Positions 1,831-61,305 of a stretch of 64,000 nt of DNA are shown in pieces. The stretch's first letter is position 1; the number at the start of each line of letters is the position of its first letter. Below the pieces are notes generated by a model that was given only the letters and a program-made list of their open reading frames with translations, made no database searches and had not been told where the DNA came from. The DNA comes from a virus, in the IMG/VR virus record IMGVR_UViG_3300045988_171958, positions 160,001 through 224,000 of that record. One strand, 5' to 3'. A program made the position numbers and the translations under genes.

Positions 1831-1872
1831 ATTGTATGGAAATACATGTAAAAGTAAAAAGTGCCACGTATT
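1806..1872. repeat. 18/19-bp inverted repeat AATACGTGGCATTTTTAC / GTAAAAAGTGCCACGTATT with 30-nt spacer
   Basis: Arms at 1806-1823 and 1854-1872 (one extra G in the right arm). The right arm contains the GTG 1861 start of the sigma ORF. Confidence 0.7.
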
Positions 1873-3114
1873 AAAGTAACTATAAATAAAGCAAATACAA
1901 AGCGTATTGTTGACTTTGTCAAAACATTGAAAAAGAAATATCCTATATTTGGTCCTTGGATGGGTATAGAAGAAGATTATTTCCTTGCCGACTGGATTCA
2001 ATTGATGAAGGATGAAATCAGAGCTATAAGGGATTGTCATGAAAAGGATATTATTTGTACTTATATAGATGAGGCTTTACGAATAGCTCCATTTATTTCT
2101 AGAACAGATGCAACTACATTATATCTTGCAGCTAAGAAGAAAGCAAGAGCAAGTTTAGTAAAGCAATATACTGATAAGACCTTTGATAACAATATAGACA
2201 GATACTTCAATGAAGTAAAGAAGCAATATATAGAGCATCCTCAAAATGAATGTGATGATTTAGTATTTTGTGATGAGAACAGAGAAATATTCTTGAAGAA
2301 TAATTTGAAGTTAGTTGTAAACTGTGCTAAACGTTATCAGAATCTTGGTATGCCATTTGATGATTTGATTCAAGCTGGTAATGAAGGATTGATAGCAGCA
2401 TTTGACAGATTTGATACATCTAAAGCAAATTTGAGAAATTCTATCAAACAAAAGATAAAGTTGGAATGTGATGAGAATAGTCCTATATGTTATGAAAAGG
2501 CTAAGAATATAATAAAAGAAGGATTTACTTATGATAAGCTTCTTGATGAAACATTAAGTAAATTACCTGTTGATGGATTCAACAATACATCAGAATTCTA
2601 TTCTTGGGTCGATAAGAATGTAAAGACTGCAGTGTTTGCTTCTGTTGCATTTCAATGGATTCGTGCAAGCATATTAGTAGATATATCAAGACAAGGTCAG
2701 GTTGTAAGAGTACCTAATGCTGGTAAAGGAACAAAATTAGCTGATATAATAAGATTGGATGGAATCAATCCTTATACAGATGATTGTTATCATGACAATG
2801 ATATAAGCAAGATGGCTAATGATGAATTCATCATTGAAGACAATAAGTTAGATGAAGAAGAACGTATATCTAGTTTGAGAAATGCTATAGATGAATTGTT
2901 GGAACCATTGTCACCTACGGCAAAGAGGATGATGAAGAAACGATATGGTGTTGGTATGCCTTACAGTATGTCAGTATCAGAACTTGCAGAAAATGAAGGT
3001 GTTTCTCTATCAACAGTTAAGATGACTTTGAAAGATGCAACTGATAAGATATTAGAAAATATGACCCCAGAAAAGAAAGAAATCATCATGAATATGATGA
3101 ATGGTAATAACTAA
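1861..3114 (+). CDS. sigma-70 family RNA polymerase sigma factor (417 aa; start uncertain, GTG 1861)
   Basis: Region 2 [35 protein letters not shown]; region 2.4-like [19 protein letters not shown]; C-terminal region 4 [26 protein letters not shown]. Confidence 0.8.
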
Positions 3115-11437: not shown

Positions 11438-11684
11438 CCAATATCACTCTCATTTGAGATGATTTGATAGTAAATATTATAGTAAAGAATTAAATAATAT
11501 TCAGTAAGAAATTAATGGTGTTTACAAAATATATCACAGCGGTGACTTAAAAGCGTCAGAGTACACGATAATTGATTTGTAGCTATTTCATTATATCACT
11601 CTGACGCTTTTTTTAAAAGAAATAATGAATTAGTCATGAACAACTTAGCACTTATCAAATCATCTCAAATGAGAGTGATATTGG
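11438..11684. repeat. 32-bp perfect inverted repeat flanking a 183-bp segment
   Basis: Left arm 11438-11469 CCAATATCACTCTCATTTGAGATGATTTGATA; right arm 11653-11684 is its exact reverse complement. Confidence 0.9.
11548..11617 (+). terminator. 14-bp stem / 35-nt loop hairpin followed by a T7 run
   Basis: AAAAGCGTCAGAGT (11549-11562) pairs with ACTCTGACGCTTTT (11598-11611), then TTTTTTT. Confidence 0.6.
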
Positions 11685-11757: not shown

Positions 11758-13251
11758 ATGGCTACAGGATTATGCTACACTCAGAGTGGTAATGTTAAGA
11801 GATATGAAACGGATCAATGGCATGGATTTGCAACTACAGGTAAACCAGTATTAAGTGCATATGGGTTACCTGTAAATAATTTCAATATGGTCACCTGGAT
11901 ATTTAATTCAAATTACCATAAAAATGATCCTGTTGTTTTAAATGATACTTATTTTAATTATAGTATGAATAAAACATTATTTACAATTACTAAAGAACCA
12001 TCATCTACAAGTTATAAATATGAAGTAAGTTATACTAATTTTATTGATGATAATTATATTAATGATCTTAAACAACATATTATTGATAATTTTAATATCC
12101 AAACAAAACAAAATATAGATGATTATAATTTGACATATTATAATCCAAATATACTTAGTACTTATGAAACGAGTTATTCAATAATTCAATCCACATATAT
12201 ATTTAATTCTATAAAAGTATATTATCATAATATAGGTAATTATATTAATGTTAATAAATCTTCCTTATTCAGTGATAATTTTAATGGGTTTATAATTTAC
12301 AAACCAAAGCCTTTAAAATTATTTAATATATCTAGTGTATTATTTTCACCAGTGGTTTATATTAATGATGATACAAATGAAAAAATTTTTAACAAGGAGA
12401 TACAAATACAAAGTTTATGGACATTACCAATTCCTAAATTTGATGTGATTTTTACTACTGAATATAATAATGAAACTTATAAATACACACATAAAGATTA
12501 TAAATTTTCAAATAATCCTCCATTCCAAGATTTAAATATAAAAGTTAGTGATAATAAGAAATTAGGAAACAGTTTTATGGTAACATTACCTCCAATAGTC
12601 ATAAATGAAGATAATGGCAAAACAATAGAATATAATGGAACTAATCTACCAAATTTGAAAAATTTTACTTCTAATTTGGATTCAATAACACTATCAAATG
12701 GTAAAATTCTTTGGGCTCAAACTAATTATATGTATGAGTTAGTAGTAAAAGGATCTTTCCAAAAATCATACGAAATAATTAAATATGATACAAATTATGT
12801 TTTACATCAAATAAACCCAATAAGTTATGTTCAATTATTTATTAAAGATTTACCTGATTATTATTTAATAAATGTTAACTATGAAAGAAATATTAATGAC
12901 CCAATAAATGCTAGTAATGTAAGTATAATTTGGAATGTTAAATCTTATAAAAATGGTAAAATTTTACAATCATATATACCAGGAGGAATAATAGATGATT
13001 TAAATTTTTCAATTGAATTTGATTTCTCTGTGATTAATTATTCATATAGAGAAAATGAGATAATTAATGAATCTTCAACTGAAGAAGGTAAATTTTCAGC
13101 AGATATAAATGTATCATATCCTTTAAATAATTTATATGATTTTACAAGTGATTTAGATTATGAAGGTAATGGATATGATTATGTAGCAAGTATTGAACAA
13201 TTTACATACCCAAACAAGAGTCATTCTGGTATAGAAATTAAATGGAAATAA
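11758..13251 (+). CDS. Asn/Tyr/Ile-rich protein (497 aa), function unknown
   Basis: Long uninterrupted ORF in the most AT-rich part of the window; followed by a bidirectional palindrome. Confidence 0.6.
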   Translation: MATGLCYTQSGNVKRYETDQWHGFATTGKPVLSAYGLPVNNFNMVTWIFNSNYHKNDPVVLNDTYFNYSMNKTLFTITKEPSSTSYKYEVSYTNFIDDNYINDLKQHIIDNFNIQTKQNIDDYNLTYYNPNILSTYETSYSIIQSTYIFNSIKVYYHNIGNYINVNKSSLFSDNFNGFIIYKPKPLKLFNISSVLFSPVVYINDDTNEKIFNKEIQIQSLWTLPIPKFDVIFTTEYNNETYKYTHKDYKFSNNPPFQDLNIKVSDNKKLGNSFMVTLPPIVINEDNGKTIEYNGTNLPNLKNFTSNLDSITLSNGKILWAQTNYMYELVVKGSFQKSYEIIKYDTNYVLHQINPISYVQLFIKDLPDYYLINVNYERNINDPINASNVSIIWNVKSYKNGKILQSYIPGGIIDDLNFSIEFDFSVINYSYRENEIINESSTEEGKFSADINVSYPLNNLYDFTSDLDYEGNGYDYVASIEQFTYPNKSHSGIEIKWK

Positions 13252-13266
13252 GATATTATAAATAAA

Positions 13267-13304
13267 ATAATGAAATTATGGGTCTAGACCCATAATTTCA
13301 TTAT
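13267..13304. terminator. 38-bp palindrome between convergent genes (bidirectional terminator candidate)
   Basis: AATGAAATTATGGGTCT|AGACCCATAATTTCATT, plus two flanking complementary bases on each side. Confidence 0.65.
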
Positions 13305-13370
13305 AATAATTCTAATATAAAATTAGATAAATTCTTCATTTAAATATTCAATTTATTTTATTTAAAAATA

Positions 13371-13919
13371 TTAATTAAAAGTCCATTGTAATTTTCCGTA
13401 CCTAATATAATTGCAAAGCACTTCTTGCAAATCATATTTTCTTTCTACACCTATCATGCAATATCTGTCATGGTCCATCAAGTCTTTAATATCCTTATCA
13501 TAATGTTCCATAGCTCTCTCATAAGCAAGACTGTCCTTCTCTAATCCACCATCCTTCCATCTTTGACGTAACTTACATAACCAATATTCTTTGATGTTCA
13601 GATTAGGCATCACATTTGTATAAATCAGATTTCTCTTTTCTAGTTCATCTCTAACTAATTGATGAGTACTGCACATTACATTGATACCTTGCATTACTAA
13701 ATCTTGTACATAATTTACATAGATTTCTACCCAATTGCTTGGTCTTCCATCATTTCCTTTCATCAAGCTAGTTTCCAAATCTATTATAGAAACCCATCGA
13801 CCATCTTCCATTTGAATGCTGTTACCTCCTATGCTTGTCTTTCCTATGGCAGGATATCCACAAAATATGTGACCTATAGGTTTATGTTCCATAATTTTAT
13901 TGTCTTTATTATCTTTCAT
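13371..13919 (-). CDS. P-loop NTPase / nucleotide-kinase-like protein (182 aa)
   Basis: Walker A-like GYPAIGKTS near the N-terminus. Confidence 0.55.
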   Translation of the reverse strand: MKDNKDNKIMEHKPIGHIFCGYPAIGKTSIGGNSIQMEDGRWVSIIDLETSLMKGNDGRPSNWVEIYVNYVQDLVMQGINVMCSTHQLVRDELEKRNLIYTNVMPNLNIKEYWLCKLRQRWKDGGLEKDSLAYERAMEHYDKDIKDLMDHDRYCMIGVERKYDLQEVLCNYIRYGKLQWTFN

Positions 13920-22559: not shown

Positions 22560-22910
22560 ATGGCATTACCAATTTTATCAAAATTAAAGAAAGAAGTTAG
22601 TCTTAATAAGTCCAACCACGATGTCGGCCAAGTATTGGTATCTTTTGATGCATCAGATTCTACAAAGTGTCTTATCATAAGTAGAAAGAAGTACTTTCTT
22701 GATAAGGGTGGACCTAACAATATTTGCCAATGGAAAGTATTGAAGGAAATCACTGCATTATCGGATATTGGAAAGTGTGTATGTATTTCAATGGACACAG
22801 CATTTGAGATAGTGAAGACAGAGATAGTAGACTGGAAAGAGTTTGATGATCCAAGGTATATAAATATTGATGAGTCAGAGTTTCCGTGTCCATATAAATA
22901 TCAACTCTAG
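22560..22910 (+). CDS. hypothetical protein (116 aa)
   Basis: ORF; rare SD-like AAAGGAG upstream. Confidence 0.55.
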   Translation: MALPILSKLKKEVSLNKSNHDVGQVLVSFDASDSTKCLIISRKKYFLDKGGPNNICQWKVLKEITALSDIGKCVCISMDTAFEIVKTEIVDWKEFDDPRYINIDESEFPCPYKYQL

Positions 22911-22970
22911 CGAGTTGAGATCAAGTTAATCAACTTTAATGAGTTGAGATTAGAATGAATTAAAAACATT

Positions 22971-23050
22971 CACACAGGGACGTTAAAATTGTCTTAGCTG
23001 ATAGAATATACTGAATCATAATTATCCGCTCCCTGTGTGACCCAGGCGCC
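22971..23050 (-). ncRNA. GC-box hairpin element, copy A (inverted orientation)
   Basis: Reverse complement of GCGCCTGGGTCACACAGGGAGCGG at 23026-23049; 10-bp stem 23031-23040 / 22971-22980. Confidence 0.6.
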
Positions 23051-23075
23051 ACCCTGGAGAATATTATAAGAGCTT

Positions 23076-24879: not shown

Positions 24880-26439
24880 ATGATAATTGACAGATTTTGG
24901 TTAAGAAAGAATCAGACGTATTATATTTTCTATTTGGATGAAAATGGTAACAGAAAATGCTATTCAAAACAAATGCATCATTGGAAAACTTATGAGTACA
25001 ATCCAAATGGAAAGAAGTATACATGGGATGGTAAGAAATGTGATGTGGTATTCAAAGATGCATCTAAGTATCAACCGAATGAATTTGATCAGCTGGAATT
25101 CTTGTATAATTTGCCAGAAGATATCTATAAGGAAGTAATGGCAATGAGATTTCCACGAATCTACTTTTCTGATATAGAGACTGAAATTTCGGATGAATTT
25201 CCAGAACCAGAAAAGGCGGAACAAAGAATTCAGTTGATAAGTCTTGTTGGTCCAGATTTGTCAGTAATGGTATTAGGTATCAAACCATTGAATTCTGATG
25301 AACAAGAAGAATTGAAGGAAAGATACCTTAAATATATAGAAGATAATGATTTTGCAAAAAACCTAATAAAGAAAAAAGGTTTTACACCAAAAGTATATTA
25401 TCAATATTTTGAAACTGAGGAATCAATGATTGAACATTGGTTCACTAGAATAATGCCAAAGATTGGTTGTTTAGCTGGATGGAACTATTATAGATTTGAC
25501 TGGAATTATATTTGGAATAGAACAGTAAAGTTGTTTGGAAAGTTCAAAGCAATGCAATTGATGAGATCTGCCAGTGTTGTTGGAGAAATCAATAAGATTT
25601 CTTGGTCAGAGATGGATGGTACAAAATATAGTATTCCAGCACCACAAGGTTGCATGATATGGGATTATATGGAGCTCATCAAATCTTATGAATATTCAAT
25701 GAGACCTTATGAGTCATATTCATTGGATTGGGTTGGTAGTCATGGTGTTAATGCTCATAAAGTAAAATATGAAGGAACAATGAAGGAATGTTATGAAAAT
25801 GATTTCCCATTGTTTGTTTACTATAATGCTATCGACTCTTGTTTGAATGCTTTGATTCATTATCGTTTCAAATGTATTGAAAGTCCATGTTCTATGGCAA
25901 CAGTAACAGGAATTCCAGCTCAGAAAGCATTAGGTCAGGTGGCTTTGACCACAGCAAATCTGTTCAGATGTTTTTATGATGAAGATCGACATGTTGTATG
26001 GGATTATGATGCTGTTGAAAGAACAAAAGTAAATTATGAAGGTGCTTTTTGTGGATGTGTTCCTGGTCGTTGGGAATATAGTGTATGTGATGACTTTGCT
26101 TCACTTTATCCATCAGTGGTTCGAACTTGCAACATATCAATGGAATCCATTATTACAAATAAAGTAGGTCCAGATAGTCTTGGAAGATATACAGAAATTC
26201 CATGGACAGAAGAAGAGCTTGATAAATTCAGAAAAGACCCTAATTATTTCGTGTCATTGCAAGGAACTGTATACAGAAATGACAAAGAATTCATGTTCGC
26301 TAAAATGCAAAGAATTCAAAAGGAGCGTCGAGATCACTTCAAATATCTCAATTGGTCATTACAAGGCCCAGTAATGATGGAAGTTGATCGACTTATAAAG
26401 ATAAGAGAAAAGGAAAGTAAATGTCAAAAGAATGGATAG
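24880..26439 (+). CDS. family B DNA polymerase, N-terminal part only (exonuclease domain through motif A; 519 aa)
   Basis: Exo I FSDIETE, Exo II GWNYYRFDWNY, Exo III YYNAIDSCL, Pol motif A DDFASLYPS. No KxxxNSxYG or YGDTDS motif before the stop. Confidence 0.85.
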   Translation: MIIDRFWLRKNQTYYIFYLDENGNRKCYSKQMHHWKTYEYNPNGKKYTWDGKKCDVVFKDASKYQPNEFDQLEFLYNLPEDIYKEVMAMRFPRIYFSDIETEISDEFPEPEKAEQRIQLISLVGPDLSVMVLGIKPLNSDEQEELKERYLKYIEDNDFAKNLIKKKGFTPKVYYQYFETEESMIEHWFTRIMPKIGCLAGWNYYRFDWNYIWNRTVKLFGKFKAMQLMRSASVVGEINKISWSEMDGTKYSIPAPQGCMIWDYMELIKSYEYSMRPYESYSLDWVGSHGVNAHKVKYEGTMKECYENDFPLFVYYNAIDSCLNALIHYRFKCIESPCSMATVTGIPAQKALGQVALTTANLFRCFYDEDRHVVWDYDAVERTKVNYEGAFCGCVPGRWEYSVCDDFASLYPSVVRTCNISMESIITNKVGPDSLGRYTEIPWTEEELDKFRKDPNYFVSLQGTVYRNDKEFMFAKMQRIQKERRDHFKYLNWSLQGPVMMEVDRLIKIREKESKCQKNG

Positions 26440-27458
26440 ATAATATATTGCTAAAGTTATTAGGTGATCACAATGGCCATCTAATAACTTCTTATTCTCA
26501 TAAATTTAAAATTGGAAAATATCCTAGGATATCTGAATATTTAAAAAATAGATTTGAAGAATTCATAACATATAGTGAAACTTATGCAAGAATTAAATTA
26601 AAAGTAGAAACTCACCCAGTATGCAAATATTGTGGAAAACCAACAAAATATGGTGGGTGGAAGCTTTTAAAGAAAACTGGTTTATTATATGGGAAATTTT
26701 GCTCTGCAAAATGTGCAAACATATATAATATTGATAAAGTAAAAGAAACGTGTAAGAAAAAATATGGAACCATTTCTGTTTCTCAAACCAAATGGTTTAG
26801 AAAACAAGTTGAGGAAACATCTTTAAAGAAATACGGTGCTAAATGTATTTTATCAAATACAGAAATAAGAGAAAAAATAAAAAATACTTGTAAAAGAAAA
26901 TATGGTGTTGAATATATTTCTCAATCTAAAATTATAATAGATAAAGTTAAAAATTCTTTACTATCTAAATATGGGGTTAAATGTGGTTATAATAAACCAG
27001 ATGTGATGGAAAGAATGAAATCTAAAGAATCACAATTAAAAAGAACTGAAGCTTTAAAAAGAAATAAAAGTTATGTAAAGTCGATTCCAGAAGAAAAATT
27101 AAATGATTTATTAGTAGAAAAATATGGTAAAGATGACATTGAAAGACAATTCATATCTAAAGAATATCCTTGGCATTGTGACTTCTACATTAAATCTTTA
27201 GATACATTTATAGAATTGCAAGGTATGTGGACACATGGTGGACATCCATACAACTTAAATTCAATAAAGGATCAAGTAAAATTACAACGGTGGCAATCAA
27301 AAGCCGACAATGGTTCAAGATTTTACAAGGGTGCAATAAAAGTTTGGACACAATTTGATGTGAATAAAAGAGAAACCGCTATCAAAAACAATTTGAAGTA
27401 TATAGAAGTGTTCGATAGTAGGAATTTTGAAATTCTTTACAATTTGTCTATATTATAG
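26421..27458 (+). mobile_element. free-standing homing-endonuclease-like gene, family copy 1 (345 aa)
   Basis: Zn ribbon CKYCGK..CSAKC; four tandem ~23-aa xxKKYGxxxxSQ repeats; C-terminal YPWHCDFYI...FIELQGMWTHGGH (Vsr/EDxHD-like core). Overlaps the polB fragment by 19 nt. Confidence 0.7.
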
Positions 27459-28120: not shown

Positions 28121-30004
28121 ATGGCAAAGACAATAGAACAAAAATATAAAGAATTATCAGAACAACAGCATGTGATCCTTCGCCCAAATATGTATGTAGG
28201 GTCTATTAAACCAGAACTTTCTACTCAGTTTGTTTTTGATTATAAAGAACAGATGATGGTACAGAAAGAAGTAGAATATGTTCCGGGTATTTTAAAGCTT
28301 ATTGATGAGGTTATATCAAATTCATGTGATGAATATCGTAGACCTGATAATCTTGGCCTTACTAATGTTTCTGTTACTGTAATGAAAGATAATACTATAG
28401 TAATAGAAGATAATGGTGGAATTCCTGTTGTTAAGCATAAAGATGCTGGCGTGATGCTTCCAAGATTTATTTTTGGTAGACTTCGTACTTCTTCTAATTA
28501 TAATGATGATGAAGATAGAGCAGGCCTTGGACAAAATGGAATTGGAGCTAGTTTGACAGCTATTTTTTCATCATATTTTGGTGTAATGACTGATGATGGA
28601 AAGAAGCGATGGCTCGGTAACTGGAAAAACAATATGTCTGAATTCTACGATGAGGAAATAGAAAAATCTTCTAAGAAGAATCATGGAACTAGGATTACAT
28701 TTCATCTTGACTTTTCTAGATTTGAAGGTATAGATAAGTTTGACAGAACATTCAAGGATATCATATTGACACGTTGTATCAATGCTGCAGCTGCTAATCC
28801 TGGATTGAAGGTAACATATAAAGATGTTGATGTATGTGGTGAATATAAGTTTGACAATTTCAAAGACTATATTGACTTATATAGAAACTATGTTACTTTG
28901 AAGGATTGTATAGAGATGAAAGATGAACATAAGCATGTCTATGTATATCCTGATGGAGCTATCAATATTGGATTTGTCAATGGAGGTATTTGCAATAAAG
29001 GTACTCATGTTAAAGCATTGCACCAAATCATCAATACTACTGTATGTGATTTTCTTAAGAAGAAAGATAAGATTGATTTGCTTCCACGACAAGTTGATGG
29101 CAACTATAGTATGTTTTGCGACTTGACTATTTCTAATCCATCTTATGATTCTCAGACTAAGGAATGCTTGACCACCCCTGTAGAGAAATTCTATAAAGAT
29201 GAAAATGTTAAGTTTGAGCTTCCAAACAAATTTCTTGATTCTGTTGTAAAGTCTGAAATCATAGATAATGTAAGAGATTGGTATAAGAAGAAATGTGAAG
29301 CAGAAGACCAACGTACTCTTCGTAAACTCAATAAAGAAGCAAGCAAAGGTCTTCGTCGTTCTGATAAGTATGTGACTTGTTCATCAAAAAAGAAACAAGG
29401 TAAGCAGCTTTGGATTTATGAAGGTGATTCTGCCGCAAGAGGTCTTCGTATTGGTAGAGATCCAGAAACCCAAGCTGGTTATGTAATGAGAGGTGTACCA
29501 CCTAACTCATTGGATATGTCGCCATTGCAGATTATGAAGAATGATGTGTTCAATGATATCATTACTATTTTAGGTCTTAAGTTTGGTGATGACTTCAATA
29601 TCAATGATTTGAAATTCGATAAGATTGTAATATCTACTGATGCAGATATTGATGGAGATAAGATTGCAGCATTGTTGCTTCTCCTTTTTTCTAGATGGCC
29701 AATTCTTTTTGAGAAGGGTATAGTATGCAGAAGCATTACTCCTATCATTATTGCAAAGAAAGGTAAAGAAGTAAAGAAGTATTATAGTCAAGAAGAATTT
29801 GATAAAGATGCAAGAAAGCTTAAAGGATATATGATTAAATACGTCAAAGGTCTTTCCGGTCTTGATGCATCTGAAACAAAGGAATCAATGAGAAACCCTA
29901 TCTTCATGCATTTCAAGATTGATGATTTGACAAAGTCAATGTTCAAGAAATGGTTTGGTAAGAATAGTAATGATCGAAAAGAAATGATGGGAGATTTAGT
30001 ATGA
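28121..30004 (+). CDS. type II DNA topoisomerase large subunit (GyrB/ParE-like; T4 gp39(+gp60)-like, 627 aa)
   Basis: GHKL motifs EVISNSCDE, EDNGGIP, GQNGIGAS; Toprim EGDSAA and STDADIDGDKI. Confidence 0.9.
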   Translation: MAKTIEQKYKELSEQQHVILRPNMYVGSIKPELSTQFVFDYKEQMMVQKEVEYVPGILKLIDEVISNSCDEYRRPDNLGLTNVSVTVMKDNTIVIEDNGGIPVVKHKDAGVMLPRFIFGRLRTSSNYNDDEDRAGLGQNGIGASLTAIFSSYFGVMTDDGKKRWLGNWKNNMSEFYDEEIEKSSKKNHGTRITFHLDFSRFEGIDKFDRTFKDIILTRCINAAAANPGLKVTYKDVDVCGEYKFDNFKDYIDLYRNYVTLKDCIEMKDEHKHVYVYPDGAINIGFVNGGICNKGTHVKALHQIINTTVCDFLKKKDKIDLLPRQVDGNYSMFCDLTISNPSYDSQTKECLTTPVEKFYKDENVKFELPNKFLDSVVKSEIIDNVRDWYKKKCEAEDQRTLRKLNKEASKGLRRSDKYVTCSSKKKQGKQLWIYEGDSAARGLRIGRDPETQAGYVMRGVPPNSLDMSPLQIMKNDVFNDIITILGLKFGDDFNINDLKFDKIVISTDADIDGDKIAALLLLLFSRWPILFEKGIVCRSITPIIIAKKGKEVKKYYSQEEFDKDARKLKGYMIKYVKGLSGLDASETKESMRNPIFMHFKIDDLTKSMFKKWFGKNSNDRKEMMGDLV

Positions 30005-31038
30005 CAGATATTGAAATAATAAATGCATATAAAGATAAAACTAAAATTTATTTTGTAGGTATGAAAGAAGAAATTAAATCATATCTACAAAATAGATTTA
30101 ATGATAGTGATTCTATAAAAGAAAGTTTTTATAGAGTTATGAATAAAATATATGATAGACCAACATGTAAATATTGTAATGGACATGTTAAATTTGTTTG
30201 GAAAGAAAAAAGATTTTTAAAATATTGTTGTTTATCATGTAAAATGAAAGTTGAATCTCCATTTAAAAGAAAAGAAATACAAAATAAAATAAAAGAAAGA
30301 AATATTGAAAAATATGGAGTAGACAATGTTTTCAAATTAAAAGAATTCCATGATAAATCTAAACAAACAAAATTAGATAGATATGGGGATGAAAATTATA
30401 ATAATAAGGAAAAATTTAAAGAAACATGTTTAAAGAAATATGGTGTAAATGCTCCATCACAAAATAAAGAAATAAGAAGAAAACAAATTGAAACTTCAAT
30501 AAAAAGATATGGGGGTGTATTCCATAAAGAAGAAGTTTCTAAAACAATTAAAAGAAAATACGGGGTTGATTGGTTTGTATATTCAGATAAATTAAAAGAA
30601 AAGGCAAATAGTGATGAAGCCCATTATAAAGCATATATTACTAAGAAGAAAAATAAATCTTTTGGACCTCAATCAAAAATGGAAAATATTTGTTATTTAT
30701 ATCTTAGTTTATATTATCCAGATATAATAAGACAATATAGAGATAATAAAAGATATCCATATAATTGTGATTTTTATATACCATGTTTAGATATGTTTGT
30801 TGAATTTCAAGGATATTATACACATGGTACACATCCTTATAATAAAAATTCTATTAAAGATCAAGTAATATTAGAAAGATTTAAGTCAAAATATAAAGAT
30901 TGGAAGAAACTTCCACAAATTATATCAACATGGACAATTAAAGATGTAGAAAAAAGAAATTTTGCTAAACAAAATAATTTGAATTATAAGGAATTTTTTA
31001 CTATTGATGAATTAAAAGATTGGTTAGAAAATGGATAA
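30001..31038 (+). mobile_element. homing-endonuclease-like gene, family copy 2 (345 aa)
   Basis: Same architecture: CKYCNG..CLSC, about five (K/R)YG repeats, YPYNCDFYIP..FVEFQGYYTHGTH. Start overlaps the upstream stop (ATGA) and its stop overlaps the next start. Confidence 0.7.
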
Positions 31039-32437
31039 GAAAAATAAAGATAAAGTAATAATTAAAAAAAATATAGATAAAAATGTTACAGAGTTTCTTA
31101 ATGTTGATTATCTAAATTACAGTTTATATACCATATCTTCAAGGGCTATTCCTTCTATATGTGATGGGTTTAAACCAGGAGCAAGAAAGATTGTACATGC
31201 AATGTTTGAAGGATCATTAAAAAATGGTGCAACAACAAAATTACTTGCACTTGTTGGAGATACAATGAAAATATCTCTTTTTGCCCATGGAGATCAAAGT
31301 CTTATTGGTAGTATATGTACATTGGCTAAAGCTTTTTATAACTTTTATAACCCACTAGAAATCGAAGGCCAAGGAGGATATCTTCGTAGTCCAGAAGCTG
31401 GAGCACCTCGATATCTATATATAAGAAAGTCAAAGTATGCAGACTTAGTATACAAGACAGATTATGATTTGCTGAAGTATGTATTTGAAGAAGGTGATTA
31501 TGTTGAACCAGAACATTACCTTCCTATTGTGCCAACAGTTCTTTCTAATACAACTATGGGTATTGCTAATGGATATTCTTTCCATAGCAATGCTTGGAAT
31601 CCAGTAGATGTGCTTGATTGTTGTTTAGAGATTCTCAAAAGTAAGAAAGGTGTAGAAAAGTTTAAGACAGTTGTAAGACCTTATTTGAGGGATATCCCAC
31701 AAGACAATTGGAAGTTAGAATCTGGTCAGTGGTATTGCTATGGTGAATGGAAGACAAATCAAGCAAAAGATCTGATGACAATCACTAATTTGCCATCTGA
31801 TACTACTTATGTTGAATTTGAAAAATTGCTGAATAGACTTTGTGACAAACAAGAAATCAAAGACTATAAAGACTTGTCAGAAGATGGCAATGTACATTAT
31901 GAAGTACAATTCTTCAAAGGTCAACTTGCAAAAGAAATCAAATCAGATAGGTCAGGTAAGAGATTAGCTAATAAGTTCAAGCTCATTAAGAAACTTCCAG
32001 AAGATTTGCTTTGGTTGCTTGATGAGAATGGTAAGCTCAAATATTTCAAAGACAGATATGAAGTTATCAGATATTTTGTAAATTGGAGATTGTCTGTTTA
32101 TGTTGAGAGAAAGAAGAAGCTTGTAAAGATACTTGAAGAGAAATACAAGAACAATTCGGAATTGGTAAAGTTCATTGAACTTGTATGTAAAGGTAAGCTT
32201 AAGATTCGTAACAGAAGTAAGGTTGATATCAAACCAGATATGGATGCACAACACTTACCAATGGCATTGTTAGCAACACCTATGTCAAAAGTAACTATAG
32301 AAGAAAGAGATGAACTTTTGAAGCAGAATGAGGAAATTAAAAAGCAACTTGAATACATTAAGAATACAACAGAAAAGCAGATGTATATAAATGACTTGCA
32401 GTCATTGAAGCAATCCTTGTTAAAGGATTTTAAATGA
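31031..32437 (+). CDS. type II DNA topoisomerase cleavage subunit (GyrA/ParC-like; T4 gp52-like, 468 aa)
   Basis: SSRAIPSICDGFKPGARKIVHA (GyrA N-terminal signature) and GAPRYLY (catalytic Tyr context). Confidence 0.8.
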   Translation: MDKKNKDKVIIKKNIDKNVTEFLNVDYLNYSLYTISSRAIPSICDGFKPGARKIVHAMFEGSLKNGATTKLLALVGDTMKISLFAHGDQSLIGSICTLAKAFYNFYNPLEIEGQGGYLRSPEAGAPRYLYIRKSKYADLVYKTDYDLLKYVFEEGDYVEPEHYLPIVPTVLSNTTMGIANGYSFHSNAWNPVDVLDCCLEILKSKKGVEKFKTVVRPYLRDIPQDNWKLESGQWYCYGEWKTNQAKDLMTITNLPSDTTYVEFEKLLNRLCDKQEIKDYKDLSEDGNVHYEVQFFKGQLAKEIKSDRSGKRLANKFKLIKKLPEDLLWLLDENGKLKYFKDRYEVIRYFVNWRLSVYVERKKKLVKILEEKYKNNSELVKFIELVCKGKLKIRNRSKVDIKPDMDAQHLPMALLATPMSKVTIEERDELLKQNEEIKKQLEYIKNTTEKQMYINDLQSLKQSLLKDFK

Positions 32438-32500
32438 TTCAAGTTTATATCAATGACTTGCAGTCATTACGTAAATCAATTTTATTGGATATAAGATAAG
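32385..32500. repeat. degenerate tandem duplication of the last ~15 codons of the gp52-like gene
   Basis: TATATAAATGACTTGCAGTCATTGAAG (32385) vs TATATCAATGACTTGCAGTCATTACG (32446). The second copy would read YINDLQSLRKSILLD vs the genuine YINDLQSLKQSLLKD. Confidence 0.8.
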
Positions 32501-32513
32501 GTTCATCCTGGAA

Positions 32514-32592
32514 GCGCCTGGGTCACACAGGGAGCGGAAAAATACTTAGAAGTATAAATTATAACCTAAGAAAAATTTCCACTCCCTGTGTG
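32514..32592 (+). ncRNA. GC-box hairpin element, copy B
   Basis: GCGCCTGGGTCACACAGGGAGCGG at 32514-32537; 11-bp perfect stem CACACAGGGAG (32524-32534) / CTCCCTGTGTG (32582-32592); inner GGAAA/TTTCC and CTTAG/CTAAG pairs. Confidence 0.65.
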
Positions 32593-32660
32593 CATAACTT
32601 TAGTTCTTGAACAGAACTGAAAGAGATGTTCATTATTTTATGGAAATTTTTTAAATTCAT

Positions 32661-32690
32661 TTTGAAATTTTTAGAATTGATACTATTTTA
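32661..32690 (+). promoter_or_regulatory. repeated promoter cassette TTTGAAATTT-N12-TACTATTTTA + conserved leader
   Basis: TTTG at 32661, CTAT at 32683 (offset 22). Leader TATCTGAACAAAATAAT matches the cassettes at 53561 and 54639. Confidence 0.65.
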
Positions 32691-32707
32691 TATCTGAACA
32701 AAATAAT

Positions 32708-32971
32708 ATGATTATGAGATTTATAATTTATAAGAACAGTAGAAAATATTCAAATATCAAATTTACAGATATTGATGAATGCAAGGAATTCATTAAGTTC
32801 AATGGAGACCATGATGAAGCAGCATCAAAAGGATGGTACTTTGATTTTTATGAATATCCTTCTGGTAAGTTTGTAACACGTCTTGTAGTAGAAGATACTG
32901 ATAAAGGTCTTGTATTTACGGAGAATTGCCCAGAAAAGACACCAAGAAACAGAAGATTCAATAATAAATAA
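32708..32971 (+). CDS. hypothetical protein (87 aa)
   Basis: ORF after a promoter cassette. Confidence 0.5.
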   Translation: MIMRFIIYKNSRKYSNIKFTDIDECKEFIKFNGDHDEAASKGWYFDFYEYPSGKFVTRLVVEDTDKGLVFTENCPEKTPRNRRFNNK

Positions 32972-38422: not shown

Positions 38423-38441
38423 ACCAAGAGTCCCCTGTTAA

Positions 38442-38515
38442 GCGCCTGGGTCACACAGGAAACGGAAAATGGTCGAGATGATAAATTATATCTCTCGACC
38501 ATTTTTATTGTTTCA
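38442..38515 (+). ncRNA. GC-box element copy C fused to an intrinsic terminator
   Basis: GCGCCTGGGTCACACAGGAAACGG at 38442-38465, then 13-bp stem AAAATGGTCGAGA / TCTCGACCATTTT (38466-38505) and a T-rich tail. Confidence 0.65.
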
Positions 38516-38527
38516 GGATTGATTTTC

Positions 38528-43330: not shown

Positions 43331-44488
43331 ATGAAAACAAATCATGATAAAATTATAGTAAAAATTATTTGTGGACAAAATAAAGGAAATATTTCAAGAT
43401 TTAAAATATCTAAAATAAAAGATAATTATCCAAATATATTAAATTATATAAAAACTAGATATAAAGATAGTAATTCAATAAATGAAACTATTAATAGAAT
43501 GAAATTTGGTGGTCCAGAAATAGTACCAAAATGTCCAGTTTGTGGAAAACCAACAATTTATAAATATAAAAATATATATACATTATATTGTTCTCATGAA
43601 TGTGCTTATAAATCTAAAGAAGTATATGAAAAGAAAAAACAAACTTCATTAAAACATTATGGAGTATCTCACCCAATGAGATCAAAAGAAATAAAAGAAA
43701 AAGTAAAAAATACTAATATTGAAATTTATGGTGCAAAAACATTTGCTGAATCAAAACTTGGTAAAAAATATTTTGAGGAAAATAAAGAATTATTAGTTAA
43801 AAAAACAGAAGAAGGTATATTTAAAAAATATGGTGTTAAAAGTTATCAACAATCAAAAGAATATCAAAATAAAAAAGATGAAATATTAAAAAAAAGAAAA
43901 GAAACAAATTTAAAAAGATTTGGAGAAACTTCTTATTCAAAAACCAATGAATGGAAACAATCTTTTCAAAATAAAAAGCAAGAGATGTTGGAAAAAATGA
44001 AAGAAACATGCCTTAAAAAATATGGAAGAGAATGGTATTTTCAAACAGAAGATTCTAAACAAAAAAATTATATTACACAAAAGAAAAATGGTACATTTGG
44101 AAAATCTAAACCTGAAGTTGAACTTAAAAATTTTCTATTAAATTATTTTCCTGATTTAATATATCAATATAAATCAAAAGAATATCCATGGAAATGTGAT
44201 TATTATATTCCTACATATAAACTTTTTATAGAATTACAAGGTTCTTGGTGTCATGGAAATAAACCTTATGATCCAAATGATGAAGAATGCATTGAATTAG
44301 TTAATTTATGGAAATCAAAGCCAAATGGATTTTATAAAAGAGCATTATATGGATATACAATAGCTGATGTTAAAAAACGTAATTGGGTAAAAACTCATAA
44401 ATTAAATTTTATTGAAATTTTTGATTATTCTGATTTTAATAAAATTCTTAATAATATTAATACATATATCAAAATGCATCAAATGTAA
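43331..44488 (+). mobile_element. homing-endonuclease-like gene, family copy 3 (385 aa), opposite strand to the structural genes
   Basis: CPVCGKP..CSHEC, multiple (K/H/I)YG repeats, YPWKCDYYIP..FIELQGSWCHGN. Confidence 0.7.
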
Positions 44489-46473: not shown

Positions 46474-48051
46474 TTAACGTAAAGCCATCATCTGAGCAGC
46501 GATACTAGACATATAGCTATCTACAGGGTTTTGGTTATGATTCTCGTTGATATTCTGTACTGGCTTCTCATTGAAATCAATACCAGCCCAGAAGCTTTCC
46601 ATTACACCAGTCTTAGTAAAGTCATAAGCACGAGACTGTAGAGCTATTTCATCCTTCTTTTGCTCGCTCAATCCTTCGAACATTGGACGGTACTCATTTG
46701 GCATGTTTACAATAGCATAGCAAGTTGCATACTTACCAAGATTCTTCTCTTGCTGTTCCTTCAACATCTGAATCTCATTTTCTTTAGAACCTTGACCACT
46801 TTCAAGCATCTCAAGCATTCTATCGATATTGTCGAACTTGTCATTAGACTTAGATTCGATATATTCAGAAACATTCTCATTAATCTTGTTACTCAATTCT
46901 TTACCAAATTGCTCAGTAATCCAATTCTGTAGTTCATCAGAGTAATTTTCAACAATCCACTTCTGAACCTCAGGAGAATACTGCTCTACAATCCACTTCT
47001 GAACCTCAGATGAATAATTTTCAACAATCCACTTCTGAACCTCAGGTGAATACTGCTCTACAATCCACTTCTGAACCTCAGGAGAATAATGTTCTGTTAC
47101 CCACTTCTGAACTTCTGGAGAATATTGCTCTACTACCCACTTCTGTACTTCAGGAGCAAACTGTTCACATACCCAATTCTGAACAACTGGAGCAAACTCT
47201 TCACTTACCCATTTCTGTACACCATTTGCCATTTCTTGGCTAAATTCAGGTTTGAATTCTTCCTTAATCCAAGATTCAATAGCATCATAGTTAGTAGGCT
47301 TGAATTCAGAAACTTGTTCAGTAAGAGCTTGGATTTGCTCATCCTTTTCGTTGATAGATTCCTTAGCTACATGGAGTTCTGCCTCAAGGCTTTCTACCTT
47401 TTCACTAAGCTTATCAACTGCTTCTTTCAAGTCTTTCATATTTGTTTTATCTTTGTCTTTATCTTTGTTCTTATCTGGATCATCATTCTTGTCGTCTTCT
47501 CCTTCAAGAATTACTGCACACATGGATTCATTCAATGATTCAAACTTCTGATTTTCATCTAGATGTAGACTTGCTTGTGAGAAACCAGGTGTACCAACCA
47601 AGTCATAAGTCTTAAGCATAGTAAGTGTTACATTACCAGATTCATCGATAGAACCAAGAGCACGAGAACTGATATACAAAGGTACACCAGCTTCTACAAT
47701 AGCCTTAGCATTACGACCCTTCTCAGTATCAAGCAGTACAACAGTACCAGTAATAGTACCATCTTCATGCATCTGAACACTTTCGATCTTATGGCTTACA
47801 TTGTTTAAGTTTATGTTCATTGAATTTGGATGTTCAAGTTCACCAAGACAACCTTCTGTTGCTATTGTCTTTTGCAAACTTTCTACCATCTGACCATAAT
47901 TCTCCTTACTATATATTCGATTGTTTCCATTCTTAATACCACAAACACCGAATACACCAGAAAGGCGAATTTCATTGTTGTCAAGAGACTCCTTAACCTT
48001 CATTGCAGTTATGTTGCCAAGTGTCTCATATACTAGACATTTCTTTGCCAT
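46474..48051 (-). CDS. prohead protease (T4 gp21-like) fused to an acidic / coiled-coil / tandem-repeat scaffold-like C-terminal region (525 aa)
   Basis: NNRIYSKENY...CLGELEHPNS...ISSRALGS parallels T4 gp21 NKRLYPKRIL..ALGELNHPP..VSSRGLGS. C-terminal half carries nine 12-aa repeats. Confidence 0.85.
   Translation of the reverse strand: MAKKCLVYETLGNITAMKVKESLDNNEIRLSGVFGVCGIKNGNNRIYSKENYGQMVESLQKTIATEGCLGELEHPNSMNINLNNVSHKIESVQMHEDGTITGTVVLLDTEKGRNAKAIVEAGVPLYISSRALGSIDESGNVTLTMLKTYDLVGTPGFSQASLHLDENQKFESLNESMCAVILEGEDDKNDDPDKNKDKDKDKTNMKDLKEAVDKLSEKVESLEAELHVAKESINEKDEQIQALTEQVSEFKPTNYDAIESWIKEEFKPEFSQEMANGVQKWVSEEFAPVVQNWVCEQFAPEVQKWVVEQYSPEVQKWVTEHYSPEVQKWIVEQYSPEVQKWIVENYSSEVQKWIVEQYSPEVQKWIVENYSDELQNWITEQFGKELSNKINENVSEYIESKSNDKFDNIDRMLEMLESGQGSKENEIQMLKEQQEKNLGKYATCYAIVNMPNEYRPMFEGLSEQKKDEIALQSRAYDFTKTGVMESFWAGIDFNEKPVQNINENHNQNPVDSYMSSIAAQMMALR
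46921..47244. repeat. nine tandem 36-bp repeats inside the protease-scaffold gene
   Basis: Units start at 46921, 46957, 46993, 47029, 47065, 47101, 47137, 47173 and 47209 (CCACTTCTGAACCTCAGG...). They encode EVQKWIVEQYSP-type repeats. Confidence 0.9.
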
Positions 48052-49624: not shown

Positions 49625-51334
49625 TTAAAAGACTTGTTCATATTCGGATGCATGTACTATTACTTGACCCGTACATAAACTTTTCTTAATGTTTTCTTTA
49701 TTGATTTTCTTATTCTTTACACTTACTCTTATCTTATGGTCAAATCTGTCATCAGGCATAGGACCATGATTGATAATTATGATAGTTCTGTTGTTTGCCA
49801 TAGAAGTTTGAAGCATTTCCAACATCATATCTTTCATATTGTCATCCATATTTGAAAAGAGTTCATCAAGTCCTATTATATTAAAATTAACATTTGCAAT
49901 AACATTCTGAAGAATTCCAAATATAATACAAATATCTAAGGTCTTCTTCTGACCAGTTGATAAGTCTTTATATGAAATTTCTTTTTCATTATTATCAATG
50001 AATATGTGGCACTTGAATTCCTGGTCAAACTTGACAGAATAGTTTTGTTCAAGCTTATTGAGATACTTAGATATTGAATTGTTGATATGAGGTATCATAG
50101 AATCAAGCAACTTGTATCGTAATGACTTAGTGAACAATTCTGACAAATCATTCCATTCACCTTGTTCTAATTCATTATCTAATGATTCTTGTTGTAATCT
50201 CTCTAACTTGTCTTTAGCTTCTGATATCAAATTATCAAAATTATCTTTCATTAACTTAAGATTAGAATTGTAAGTTGATACTTTAGTATCAATAGAATGG
50301 ATTTCAGATTTGATATCAGAAATCAATGTATCATATTTCTTGTTTACTATATCTATCTTATCATTTATAGATAGAATTTCTTTAGATACTTCTTCTATCT
50401 TATCATTCCAATCATGCCAAACTTTAGCATAATCATTCATTTTATTGAGATATTCATCTATTTTTGATTTCTCAATATCATGACCACATGTAGGACATTT
50501 ACCTGATTTGAATTTCTCATACATCTGTTTCTGTTGCTTTCCTAAAGTAGCTGCTTCTGTACGCTTATCAACAAATTCAGATTTCTTTTTCTCTAATTCT
50601 CTTTTTTGCTCTACTATTGTATCAACTTTTTGCTTATGTTCTTCTTTTACAGATTTTCCTTGTTCAATCAAGTCATTTCTTCGCTTGTCCAATCCTGTTA
50701 TATCTATTGATGTAGCAAGTTTCTGTTGCTGATTTTCTTTCTTCTTTTTTAAAGATTCTATCTGATTAGAAGTTTCTTGTATCAATGCTTGCAATTCTGT
50801 TCCTCTTTTTGCAACATCTCTTCTTTCTTCAACTACTTCATCATTATAAGTAGTAAAAGTCTTAAAACCAAATACATCATCCAAAAAGCATTTTGTTTGA
50901 AATGGGTTCATGCTTGCTAATGACATAAACTGGTTGAACGATATGATGCACATTCTTTCTATTGCAATTCTTGGTACATCATAATATTCTTCTAGGATTT
51001 TCTGATAATCATTCTTAGATGGTGCTTGCAAATCCTTTCCGTCTATTTTTGCTACCATTTCAGAATAACAAGATCTAGAAATATAAATATCATGCTTTCC
51101 AGAAGTAAGCCATAATTCAACTTTATAGTCTTTAGTATTCCAAGCAATCAAATTTGGGTTCTTATGATCTTTTATGGTACCATAAAGACCAAATAGAATA
51201 GAATTTAATAGCATGGTTTTTCCACTTCCAATAGGACCAGAAAGCTTAATCATTCCCTTTAATTCATTAAAATTAAATTCATGAACCCCATATAAAGATC
51301 CAAAATTTTTTATTCTTATTTTATTTATTATCAT
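49625..51334 (-). CDS. Rad50/SbcC-like recombination ATPase (T4 gp46-like, 569 aa)
   Basis: Walker A GPIGSGKT, central coiled coil with CPTCGH zinc hook, signature LSTGQKK, Walker B IIGLDELF. Confidence 0.85.
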   Translation of the reverse strand: MIINKIRIKNFGSLYGVHEFNFNELKGMIKLSGPIGSGKTMLLNSILFGLYGTIKDHKNPNLIAWNTKDYKVELWLTSGKHDIYISRSCYSEMVAKIDGKDLQAPSKNDYQKILEEYYDVPRIAIERMCIISFNQFMSLASMNPFQTKCFLDDVFGFKTFTTYNDEVVEERRDVAKRGTELQALIQETSNQIESLKKKKENQQQKLATSIDITGLDKRRNDLIEQGKSVKEEHKQKVDTIVEQKRELEKKKSEFVDKRTEAATLGKQQKQMYEKFKSGKCPTCGHDIEKSKIDEYLNKMNDYAKVWHDWNDKIEEVSKEILSINDKIDIVNKKYDTLISDIKSEIHSIDTKVSTYNSNLKLMKDNFDNLISEAKDKLERLQQESLDNELEQGEWNDLSELFTKSLRYKLLDSMIPHINNSISKYLNKLEQNYSVKFDQEFKCHIFIDNNEKEISYKDLSTGQKKTLDICIIFGILQNVIANVNFNIIGLDELFSNMDDNMKDMMLEMLQTSMANNRTIIIINHGPMPDDRFDHKIRVSVKNKKINKENIKKSLCTGQVIVHASEYEQVF

Positions 51335-52427
51335 GATTAATAAAATGTTTTACTTCATCTAAATTAAAAAATTCAATGTAATTCAAATGATTTATTTTTG
51401 CAACTTTTCTTTTATATGGATCTCTTTCTGTCCATATTTGTATTGCATTCTTATATAGAATTTTATTTTCATTTTCATATTTATATTTCCATTTATTAAC
51501 AATGTTACTATCTTCTTCCGATTCAGGATTATAAATATGGTCGCCATGTGTCCAATATCCATTGAATTCAATAAACAAATCTTCACTAGGAATATAAAAG
51601 TCACAATTAAATGGATATCGATTACTATTATATTGTCTTATTACATCCTTATATTTTAATTTTAATAATTCAAAACATTTATCTTCTTTTTTAGATCTTT
51701 TATAAGATCCATTTTTTATTTTAGTTTGAATTATTTTATTTTGTACTTCCGGATCAGATAATTTAATTCTTAAATTTTCTCTTGCTTTAGGACATTGATT
51801 ATAATATTCATATCCGTATTTAATTAAATTGGTTTGTTTAGTTTTTTCTTTACATTTTTCAGATGATAAAGATATTTGGGCTTTTTTCCTTATATCTTCA
51901 TCACAAAAGAAATTTGCATAGCCATATTTTCTAAGTCTTGTTTCTTCTGATTTCTTTTGAATTTCTTTGGAAGAAAGAACACATTTTACTCCATATTTTT
52001 TTAAACAAGTATTTTCTTTTTTATTTTTGATTTCTTTTAATTGGAATGGATTTTCTGTACCATATTTATTCTGCCAAGTCATTTTCATCTTGGTAATTAT
52101 ACCTGGTATACCTTTACCATATTTTTTTAACCTTGTTTCTGCAATATGAATACCAACTAAATTAGATTTTTTCTTACAATCATTAGAACAATATGTCAAA
52201 TATACTAATCCAGGATGTCCATTAAATTTACAATTTTTACCACATACTGGGCACTTTGGAATTTCTTCTATATTATATTTTATTCTATATACAGTTTCTT
52301 TATAAGAGTTAAATTCTTTAAATCTATTCTTTAAATATTTTTTAACTTCATCTGTAAAAGATTTCTTATTTAATTTTAATCTTTTTTTAAAAAATTCATT
52401 AATTATATATTCATCATTGATTTCCAT
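51321..52427 (-). mobile_element. homing-endonuclease-like gene, family copy 4 (368 aa)
   Basis: CPVCGKN..CSNDC, KYG repeats, YPFNCDFYIP..FIEFNGYWTHGDH; overlaps the gp46-like start by 14 nt. Confidence 0.7.
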
Positions 52428-61172: not shown

Positions 61173-61189
61173 TTAGATTCTCTAGGATG

Positions 61190-61268
61190 GCGCCTGGGTC
61201 ACACAGGGAGCGGATAATTATGATTCAGTATATTCTATCAGTTGAGATAATTTTAACGTTTCCTAGTG
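61190..61268 (+). ncRNA. GC-box hairpin element, copy D
   Basis: GCGCCTGGGTCACACAGGGAGCGG at 61190-61213. The first ~54 nt are identical to the reverse complement of copy A; the distal arm is degenerate (TTTCCTAGTG 61259-61268). Confidence 0.6.
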
Positions 61269-61281
61269 AATTTTACAAAAA

Positions 61282-61305
61282 GAGCTCTGACTTAAGTCAG
61301 AGCTC
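61282..61305. terminator. bidirectional stem-loop GAGCTCTGAC-ttaa-GTCAGAGCTC
   Basis: 10-bp perfect stem between convergent genes, A/T tracts on both sides. Confidence 0.6.

Follow-up and report, generated by a model that had tools for sequence, protein, structure and literature searches.

What does a GC-rich box of 24 nt do that recurs four times in a 64,000-nt stretch of viral DNA (positions 160,001 to 224,000 of IMG/VR record IMGVR_UViG_3300045988_171958, hereafter the window) whose GC content ranges from 24 to 38%? The box, GCGCCTGGGTCACACAGGRARCGG, was located in an earlier note at one minus-strand and three plus-strand positions, and all four are exact matches (Table 1). No 24-mer match of any kind appeared in 100 dinucleotide-preserving shuffles of the window, and boxes account for three of its six most GC-rich 22-nt islands. 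In the following we describe the larger cassette to which the box belongs, its distribution among related phages and its placement relative to genes. The element is real, is under selection and, as far as Rfam and a literature search for its core sequence reach, is undescribed; most likely the cassette marks or controls transcript ends. To our knowledge, gene regulation of uncultivated gut jumbo phages is essentially uncharted.

The phage and the window

Judged by its proteins and gene content, the window derives from a large myovirus. It encodes a split topoisomerase II, a DNA polymerase, an NAD ligase, an SbcCD-like nuclease, a tail sheath, a major capsid protein, a prohead protease, a sigma70-region-2 protein, a D12 adenine methyltransferase and four DUF7487 endonuclease-like paralogues. 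The capsid protein is 29–39% identical to those of Sphingomonas phage PAU, of Chryseobacterium and Tenacibaculum jumbo phages and of Lak phages, and a deposited-phage collection contained no near DNA match to the window. A tRNA scan returned nothing.

Several further features of the window are listed in Table 1. The ORF carrying a Sigma70_r2 domain may encode a sigma factor of the phage's own. The four DUF7487 ORFs carry zinc-ribbon and weak Vsr-like endonuclease signals and look like free-standing homing endonuclease genes; one comes after a DNA polymerase ORF that spans only the N-terminal half of its profile, another is placed between both topoisomerase II ORFs, and further copies adjoin the cassette in relatives. 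A perfect 32-nt inverted repeat upstream of an unannotated ORF may represent an invertible segment or else form a very large hairpin, and a run of tandem units is found inside the prohead-protease-like ORF. An AT-rich palindrome sits exactly at a convergent junction of two ORFs and is a junction hairpin of another kind than the GC-box cassette.

Table 1. Positions of the cassette copies and of other features in the window, with three loci from related phages.
Feature	Position	Strand	Details
Copy A, whole cassette	22957-23064	-	reversed relative to the flanking + strand genes
Copy A, left flank	23050-23061	-	
Copy A, box	23026-23049	-	exact 24-mer
Copy A, 71-nt hairpin	22970-23040	-	
Copy A, T-run	22957-22969	-	T-run on the - strand
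Copy B, whole cassette	32499-32593	+	
Copy B, left flank	32502-32513	+	TTCATCCTGGAA
Copy B, box	32514-32537	+	exact 24-mer
Copy B, hairpin	32523-32593	+	long, near-continuous
Copy B, 3' arm	32579-32592	+	CCACTCCCTGTGTG
Copy C, whole cassette	38427-38521	+	convergent junction
Copy C, left flank	38430-38441	+	GTCCCCTGTTAA
Copy C, box	38442-38465	+	exact 24-mer
Copy C, inner terminator-like hairpin with T-run	38466-38506	+	
Copy C, remnant 3' arm	38508-38521	+	TTGTTTCAGGATTG
Copy D, whole cassette	61175-61271	+	convergent junction
Copy D, left flank	61177-61189	+	ATTCTCTAGGATG
Copy D, box	61190-61213	+	exact 24-mer
Copy D, 3' arm	61259-61271	+	TTTCCTAGTGAAT
Separate canonical hairpin terminator	61277-61305	.	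AAAAAGAGCTCTGAC TTAA GTCAGAGCTC; right after copy D
Duplicate of topoisomerase gene 3' end	32446-32497	+	73% identity to 32384-32435 (last 52 nt)
Second repeated intergenic module	32596-32635	+	~40 nt; AACTTTAGTTCTTGAACAGAACTGAAAGAGATGTTCATTA; …TTAGTTCTTGAACAGAACTGAAAGAGATGTTCAT…; directly 3' of copy B
Second module, relatives	L006 399-523; L022 1097-1213; L042 1929-2012		
Promoter-like motif beside copy B	32660-32696	+	TTTTGAAATTT...CTAT.TT; next gene starts at 32708
Promoter-like motif, starts	3956, 5970, 16637, 20807, 27424, 32659, 53560, 54638, 58237, 59391		
ORF beside site A	22560-22910		missing in several relatives
Sigma70_r2 ORF	1861-3114	+	417 aa
DUF7487 ORFs	26421-27458; 30001-31038; 43331-44488	+	345-385 aa, all four
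DUF7487 ORF	51321-52427	-	
Inverted repeat, 32 nt	11438-11469 / 11653-11684		perfect; arms 183 nt apart
Unannotated ORF	11758-13251	+	497 aa
AT-rich palindrome	13253-13318		33-nt arms, 88% complementary
ORF convergent with 11758-13251	13371-13919	-	
Tandem 36-nt units (12-residue repeats)	46838-47233		eight units
Prohead-protease-like ORF	46474-48051	-	

Anatomy of the cassette

The earlier note took the 24-nt box to be the repeat. The box stands as described, but the repeated unit is longer, comprising ~95–105 nt with its left flank: identity between copies A and D is 89% over 98 nt, that between copies A and B 71% over 111 nt, and copies align nearly without gaps. Each cassette consists of a short left flank, the box, a hairpin spanning 71 nt that uses the 3' half of the box as its 5' arm, and usually a T-run. 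The left flank, 12 nt long and starting with TTC, takes the form TTCnCCAGG... or TTCCCCTGT...; flanks of the CCAGG/CTAGG class are complementary to CCTGG in the 5' half of the box and those of the CCTGT class to ACAGG in its 3' half, and longer left sides resemble partial copies stacked in tandem. The box itself has a near-invariant GC-rich consensus, G[C/T]GCCTGGGTCACACAGG + GAGCGG. At most sites 7–8 T residues occur within 12 nt past the arm, and 8 of the 11 sites defined below have a T-run behind a hairpin whose base is GC-rich.

The pairing between TCACACAGGGA in the box and its arm, TCCCTGTGTGA, is perfect in copies A and B, as had been reported; its span is fixed at 71 nt. The stem runs inward through CG and A/T runs toward an apex rich in TATA(A/T)(A/T)T. 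Across copies, which are related by descent and thus non-independent, 87% of the cells of the main hairpin are paired, compared with 24–54% in slid-partner controls. A test for compensatory changes, which had been suggested in the earlier note, gave matched box and arm changes at the only variable box positions (GGTAGCGG/CCGCTACC, GGTG/TACC, GGCAACTT/AAGTTGCC and GGAAAC/GTTTC), together with uncompensated changes at the box 3' end. Many copies, including those of the commonest loop types, have a weak hairpin interior, and the longest helices, of the copy B type, reach up to ~27 near-continuous base pairs. A simple terminator scan did not call the 71-nt hairpin, which has the base stem and T-run but departs from the compact GC-rich stem, 3–8 nt loop and immediate U-tract of canonical intrinsic terminators.

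The two copies at convergent junctions depart from this scheme in different ways. In copy C the arm had been thought to be replaced by a 13-bp terminator hairpin. A strong hairpin with a T-run is indeed there, with 14 bp and by eye with the layout of a canonical intrinsic terminator, but the homologous architecture is kept: it is the inner stem that has turned into this hairpin, and a remnant of the arm persists beyond it. The arm of copy D, stated to be degenerate, does not pair with the box but is not merely degenerate, being complementary to the copy's own left flank. More generally, left flank and 3' arm form inverted repeats of ~11–13 nt that are clearest in copy D and in locus L117b of a distant subfamily; in copy D the two ends, AGATTCTCTAGGA and AAATTCACTAGGA, agree at 11 of 13 positions, and a third, internal copy lies in the box. 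The partner of the arm varies within the distant subfamily as well, being the left flank in L117b (14 bp), the flank plus ATGGCG in L134 (11 bp) and the box in L117a (14 bp).

A single structure, an invariant CCUG[GGUCACA]CAGG hairpin within the box, is common to all copies. RNAalifold applied to all loop types together returned just this hairpin and no covariation; at the DNA level the same part of the core has the partial dyad symmetry CCTG-N7-CAGG. Folding is better for the box strand than for its complement in 74 of 98 unique copies, and the same holds for 10 of 11 sites; these counts come from copies of shared ancestry and not from independent samples. The difference suggests that the box strand is the functional single strand. 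We also considered whether the cassette is translated and rejected this, since copies do not conserve the ATG in ATGGCGCC, many are interrupted by in-frame stops, and they differ in phase relative to the upstream stop codon. An integron attC site (R''/L''-L'/R' core sites, RYYYAAC...GTTRRRY, plus an IntI integrase) was likewise rejected, as GTTAAGC occurs in long-flank variants only and is unconserved, and no integrase was seen.

Distribution and conservation of the box

The earlier note had proposed looking for the box outside the window. Its 18-nt core, GCGCCTGGGTCACACAGG, has 128 exact copies, all in low-GC jumbo-phage loci of a single gut clade, so that it is present in related phages; the sources are seven IMG/VR contigs of 167–283 kb, all from a single metagenome, together with contigs of up to 292 kb from human-gut metagenomes. 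A profile search added ~10 copies with variant boxes, mainly C-to-T changes (GTGCC, GTGTC). Matches to the core in high-GC genomes all come without the rest of the element and are due to chance, and other sub-patterns searched in viral contigs gave only the same clade or such chance matches. The core was also found in two genome bins labelled 'uncultured Romboutsia sp.' (GTDB bins CALFLM01 and CALESE01; loci L044, L047, L048, L050, L051, L053, L056-L063, L069, L072 and L073). Since the contigs concerned share both the phage flanks and the cassette, they are phage contigs binned with a bacterium, reflecting either mis-binning by composition or a hint of the host. A CRISPR repeat mimic (solitary repeat or Racr) was rejected at the level of the 18-nt core, which is in no low-GC bacterial genome outside phage contigs, and there were no Rfam CRISPR-DR matches.

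Copies group into ~11 orthologous sites per genome. These sites are occupied in all of the related genomes examined, with some boxes slightly mutated (GTGCC, CCTGAG), and junction BLAST, flank mapping and orthologous loci fetched via neighbouring proteins yielded no empty site among them; one more distant relative, with different synteny, is without the element. Paralogous gene-plus-element cassettes were rejected as an explanation, each site having its own orthologous upstream gene. Mutated boxes at orthologous sites, such as GGCGCCTGAGTCACACAGGAAACAA at site C of IMG contig 174340 (L181) and GTGCCTGGGTCACACAGGTGGCGG at site D of contig 167932 (L188), indicate that single copies can drift, and the GTGCC form was seen repeatedly and at several sites.

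Sites D and 3 are occupied at orthologous positions in the distant subfamily, where the neighbouring proteins are 48–69% identical. The 18-nt core and the AGGATG preceding it are identical there, and the loop is barely alignable. A core that stays unchanged while its neighbour proteins fall to such identities reflects purifying selection on the box and not recent spread. Throughout, the box is more conserved than its pairing arm and than the loop, which bears out the description of a conserved box and a variable enclosed loop. The failure to match it to an RNA family also held up: Rfam gave no match over the whole window at gathering score and, around copies A and B at E<=10, nothing beyond generic hairpin (miRNA/snoRNA) noise below threshold. 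The core sequence was also looked for in the literature, with no result.

Placement at gene ends

A same-strand stop codon precedes the element at 9 of 11 sites, often by 1–5 nt, a placement that is not significant alone (two-sided binomial ~0.07). At the remaining two sites, which include copy A, the whole element is reversed between co-directional genes. It had been stated that each copy in the window lies past the stop of a plus-strand gene; copies B, C and D do so, but copy A does not follow such a gene in the same way, being antisense to both neighbouring plus-strand genes. That two copies, C and D, sit at convergent strand switches was correct.

The state of the hairpin follows the gene arrangement. 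Box–arm pairing is intact at all co-directional and reversed sites and degenerate only at three convergent junctions, each of which carries another canonical, bidirectional terminator; at copy D the junction is served by the separate hairpin that follows it. Decay of the arm only where another terminator exists is as expected if the hairpin is kept for termination. Together with the T-run and the prevalence of upstream same-strand stops, it agrees with the suggestion in the earlier note that the element acts at the 3' ends of transcripts or is a recognition site.

A promoter-like repeat, TTTTGAAATTT-N10-11-TTCTATATTT, occurs upstream of many plus-strand genes of the window; it fits a sigma-70/sigma-A type promoter, and the Bacteroidota -33/-7 pattern less well. 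It lies downstream of the cassette at several co-directional sites but not at the convergent ones, nor at sites 3 and 5, where the next gene begins 11–36 nt downstream and leaves no space for a promoter. One member lies between copy B and the following gene, making a stem-loop-then-promoter arrangement. Two promoter readings of the cassette itself were rejected. A sigma-54 or other promoter in the box would face a convergent or opposite gene at 5 of 11 sites, and a late promoter in the apical TATAAATTATA is at odds with a motif that is not enriched in the window and is missing upstream of structural genes.

Exchange between copies and adjoining indels

Copies at different sites have exchanged sequence. 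Site 3 (L031) and site D (L023) of one genome have an identical tract in common that includes a rare box variant, and the loops of copies A and D of the window are 89% identical, whereas the orthologue of copy A (L118) differs; loop types are shuffled among sites. Loop identity between sites is 0.63 both within and between genomes. This equality indicates episodic conversion, and we reject pervasive within-genome homogenisation.

Gene-sized indels adjoin the element. An ORF beside site A is missing in several relatives (Table 1), and DUF7487 insertions lie beside site C in three genomes (L085, L099 and contig 167773) and beside site D in one (L154). Indel breaks fall within ±150 nt of an element in 17 of 54 cases, a weak enrichment among non-independent pairs. 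Copy B is preceded by a duplicate of the topoisomerase gene 3' end that closes with a TAA of its own, 2 nt ahead of the left flank; besides the repeat of the last 52 nt, this duplication is also given as 62 nt. Relative L129 is without it, and the topoisomerase gene ends directly at the element. Copy B is followed by a second repeated intergenic module, which in related phages lies on either side of the cassette (in fixed relative orientation), elsewhere, or in tandem arrays. The earlier note had missed this association with ectopic recombination and indels, as it had the left flank, the ~100-nt length, the reversal of copy A and the alternative pairings of the 3' arm. It is the recombination and indel association that places the element beside the PeSL (promoter-early stem-loop) cassettes of T4-type phages.

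A terminator-type 3'-end element is tentatively favoured

We tentatively favour the view that the cassette may be a terminator-type 3'-end element that carries a recognition box for a factor and works in the manner of the PeSL cassettes known from T4-type phages, although we hold this as one possibility among several. From the observed anatomy, distribution, conservation, pairing, orientation bias and ectopic exchange we infer that the cassette would be transcribed as the 3' untranslated end of the upstream gene and would act there as a terminator-type 3'-end or insulator element. Because it is conserved far beyond the needs of pairing, the box may be the recognition site of a putative trans-acting factor, either a phage protein or a polymerase complex, that would read or control the terminator by antitermination, processing or stabilisation. 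The dispersed identical boxes could incidentally serve as recombination anchors, with copies swapping segments and gene-sized indels building up alongside.

Several observations count against a plain terminator. An mRNA crossing either of the two reversed sites would contain the hairpin but lack a U-run, and the 71-nt span with its often weak interior is unlike compact intrinsic terminators. Full termination at sites 3 and 5 would silence the next gene. In addition, the three convergent sites keep the box though the terminator pairing is lost, which suggests that the box has a role beyond termination alone. A regulated version of the cassette, by antitermination or attenuation, would be attractive since the conserved box overlaps the 5' arm of the hairpin, since the left flank, situated within a ribosome footprint of the stop codon, can pair with the box, and since sites 3 and 5 leave the next gene no promoter space. 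In its strongest form, which we consider somewhat unlikely, the box would be the cis site of a dedicated putative phage factor that switches ~eleven terminator or 3'-end elements per genome at once, as a clade-specific system of nut/RAT-like temporal control or RNA processing, with the left flank, 1–5 nt past the stop, coupling the switch to upstream translation. If this were so, both a new RNA site and a new protein partner would be at hand.

A stretch of 24–32 nt stays unchanged at ~eleven fixed 3'-end positions while neighbour proteins drift to ~50–70% identity. The box could thus be used as bait for a factor that reads it, as a marker of transcription-unit boundaries and as a clonable handle. 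The exact core is also a specific metagenome probe for this phage clade, and it exposed the phage contigs in the two 'Romboutsia' bins.

Alternative explanations

The inverted-repeat ends described above would be read quite differently if the cassette were a non-autonomous mobile DNA element of the MITE, REP or Correia kind that spread in the clade ancestor and is now fixed and decaying. Left flank and 3' arm would then be terminal inverted repeats (11 of 13 positions in copy D, with a third internal copy in the box), and box and arms former transposase-binding sites; the presence of both orientations, the many copies of a ~100-nt palindromic extragenic unit and the modular left side with its tandem partial copies are all in keeping with this. 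We nevertheless think it unlikely. None of the related genomes examined has an empty site, no flanking target-site duplication was seen, an arm search through 1.1 Mb of loci found neither solo arms nor a larger element with these ends, and no transposase (RAYT, Y1 or other) was present among ~40 window proteins scanned. Moreover, stable sites across subfamilies and an invariant core imply ongoing selection and not decay.

The constancy of 18–24 nt whether or not the hairpin partner survives, the partial dyad symmetry of the core and the tolerance of either orientation raise the prospect that the box acts as DNA. It might be a double-stranded or hairpin recognition site for a phage enzyme, such as a site-specific nick, a replication or recombination site, or a target of the DUF7487 endonuclease-like proteins. 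Site-specific nicks occur in T5 and phiKMV-type phages, and the DUF7487 insertions at sites C and D would fit such a target. We judge this just as doubtful as the mobile element, as a DNA site does not account for an element that is always intergenic right after stop codons, has a one-sided T-run and an orientation bias, and keeps its arm in accordance with the need for a terminator. The adjacency of DUF7487 genes is at about chance level, given that only element neighbourhoods were sampled, and none of the four DUF7487 genes of the window adjoins any copy.

The strand on which the box folds better and the deep conservation of the same box at many loci would suit a set of sibling small RNAs processed from the 3' ends of ~11 mRNAs. 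Here the conserved unpaired half-box directly 5' of the terminator-type hairpin would be the seed, the hairpin and U-run the terminator, and host or phage transcripts the targets. This appears quite unlikely: the sites lack a common promoter because a different coding gene lies upstream at each, no complementary target was found in the window, the core is in no low-GC bacterial genome, and the presumed seed could itself be paired with the left flank in many copies. Least convincing, and in our estimate improbable, is an RNase III-type intercistronic processing or stability hairpin, which would suit the long helices of the copy B type and, tolerating either orientation, would explain the reversed sites, but which has to contend with the poorly paired interior of the commonest loop types and leaves unexplained both the 9–10 conserved nt outside the helix and the box kept where the helix is lost.

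Comparison with known systems

Intercistronic RNase III processing hairpins are known from the R sites of T7 and the conserved Bs-RNase III sites of SP82. The cassette resembles them as a conserved intercistronic hairpin repeated along a phage genome, and differs in a helix interior that is often weak and in a conserved core that lies partly outside the helix. REP/REPIN, Correia and bacterial MITE-like palindromes can, once transcribed, serve as terminators, stabilisers or RNase III substrates. Like these, the cassette is short, GC-rich and extragenic, is often located just past stops and occurs in either orientation. Unlike them, it resides in phages at ~11 copies per genome, has asymmetric ends and positions fixed across the clade, and comes with no RAYT or transposase, target duplication or empty site that we could find.

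In lambda nut sites and in BglG/LicT-type RAT/terminator pairs, a conserved linear-plus-hairpin RNA site precedes or overlaps a terminator. The box is comparable in that it lies past a stop codon, overlaps the 5' arm of the hairpin and is more conserved than its terminator partner, and one factor could serve many sites. The sequences are dissimilar, however, and the box is kept even without an overlapping terminator. No N-, Q- or BglG-like protein was identified, the Sigma70_r2 ORF being the only transcription factor seen in the window.

The closest parallel is with the PeSL cassettes, which are repeated intergenic units of ~100 nt in large T4-type myoviruses (Arbiol et al. 2010, PMC2839356; Comeau et al. 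2014, PMC4122927). They combine a GC-rich stem-loop that acts as a terminator or attenuator with an early promoter, flank small variable genes, and give rise to indels and mosaics by recombination (PMC2839356, PMC4122927). Our cassette has no sequence homology to them. It is likewise a ~100-nt intergenic repeat of a large myovirus with a GC-rich stem-loop, and an early-type promoter comes next at several sites; its copies recombine and whole-gene indels adjoin them. In contrast to PeSL, the repeat here stops at the T-run, the promoter motif forms a repeat of its own that follows the cassette at some sites only, the hairpin extends over 71 nt, and copies are also found at convergent junctions and reversed. 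The most conserved part is a 24-nt box that reaches 9–10 nt 5' of the stem and is retained at orthologous sites across deep divergence. Should the element prove to be only a recombining terminator cassette, the modular shuffling described for PeSL would extend beyond classical T4-type phages.
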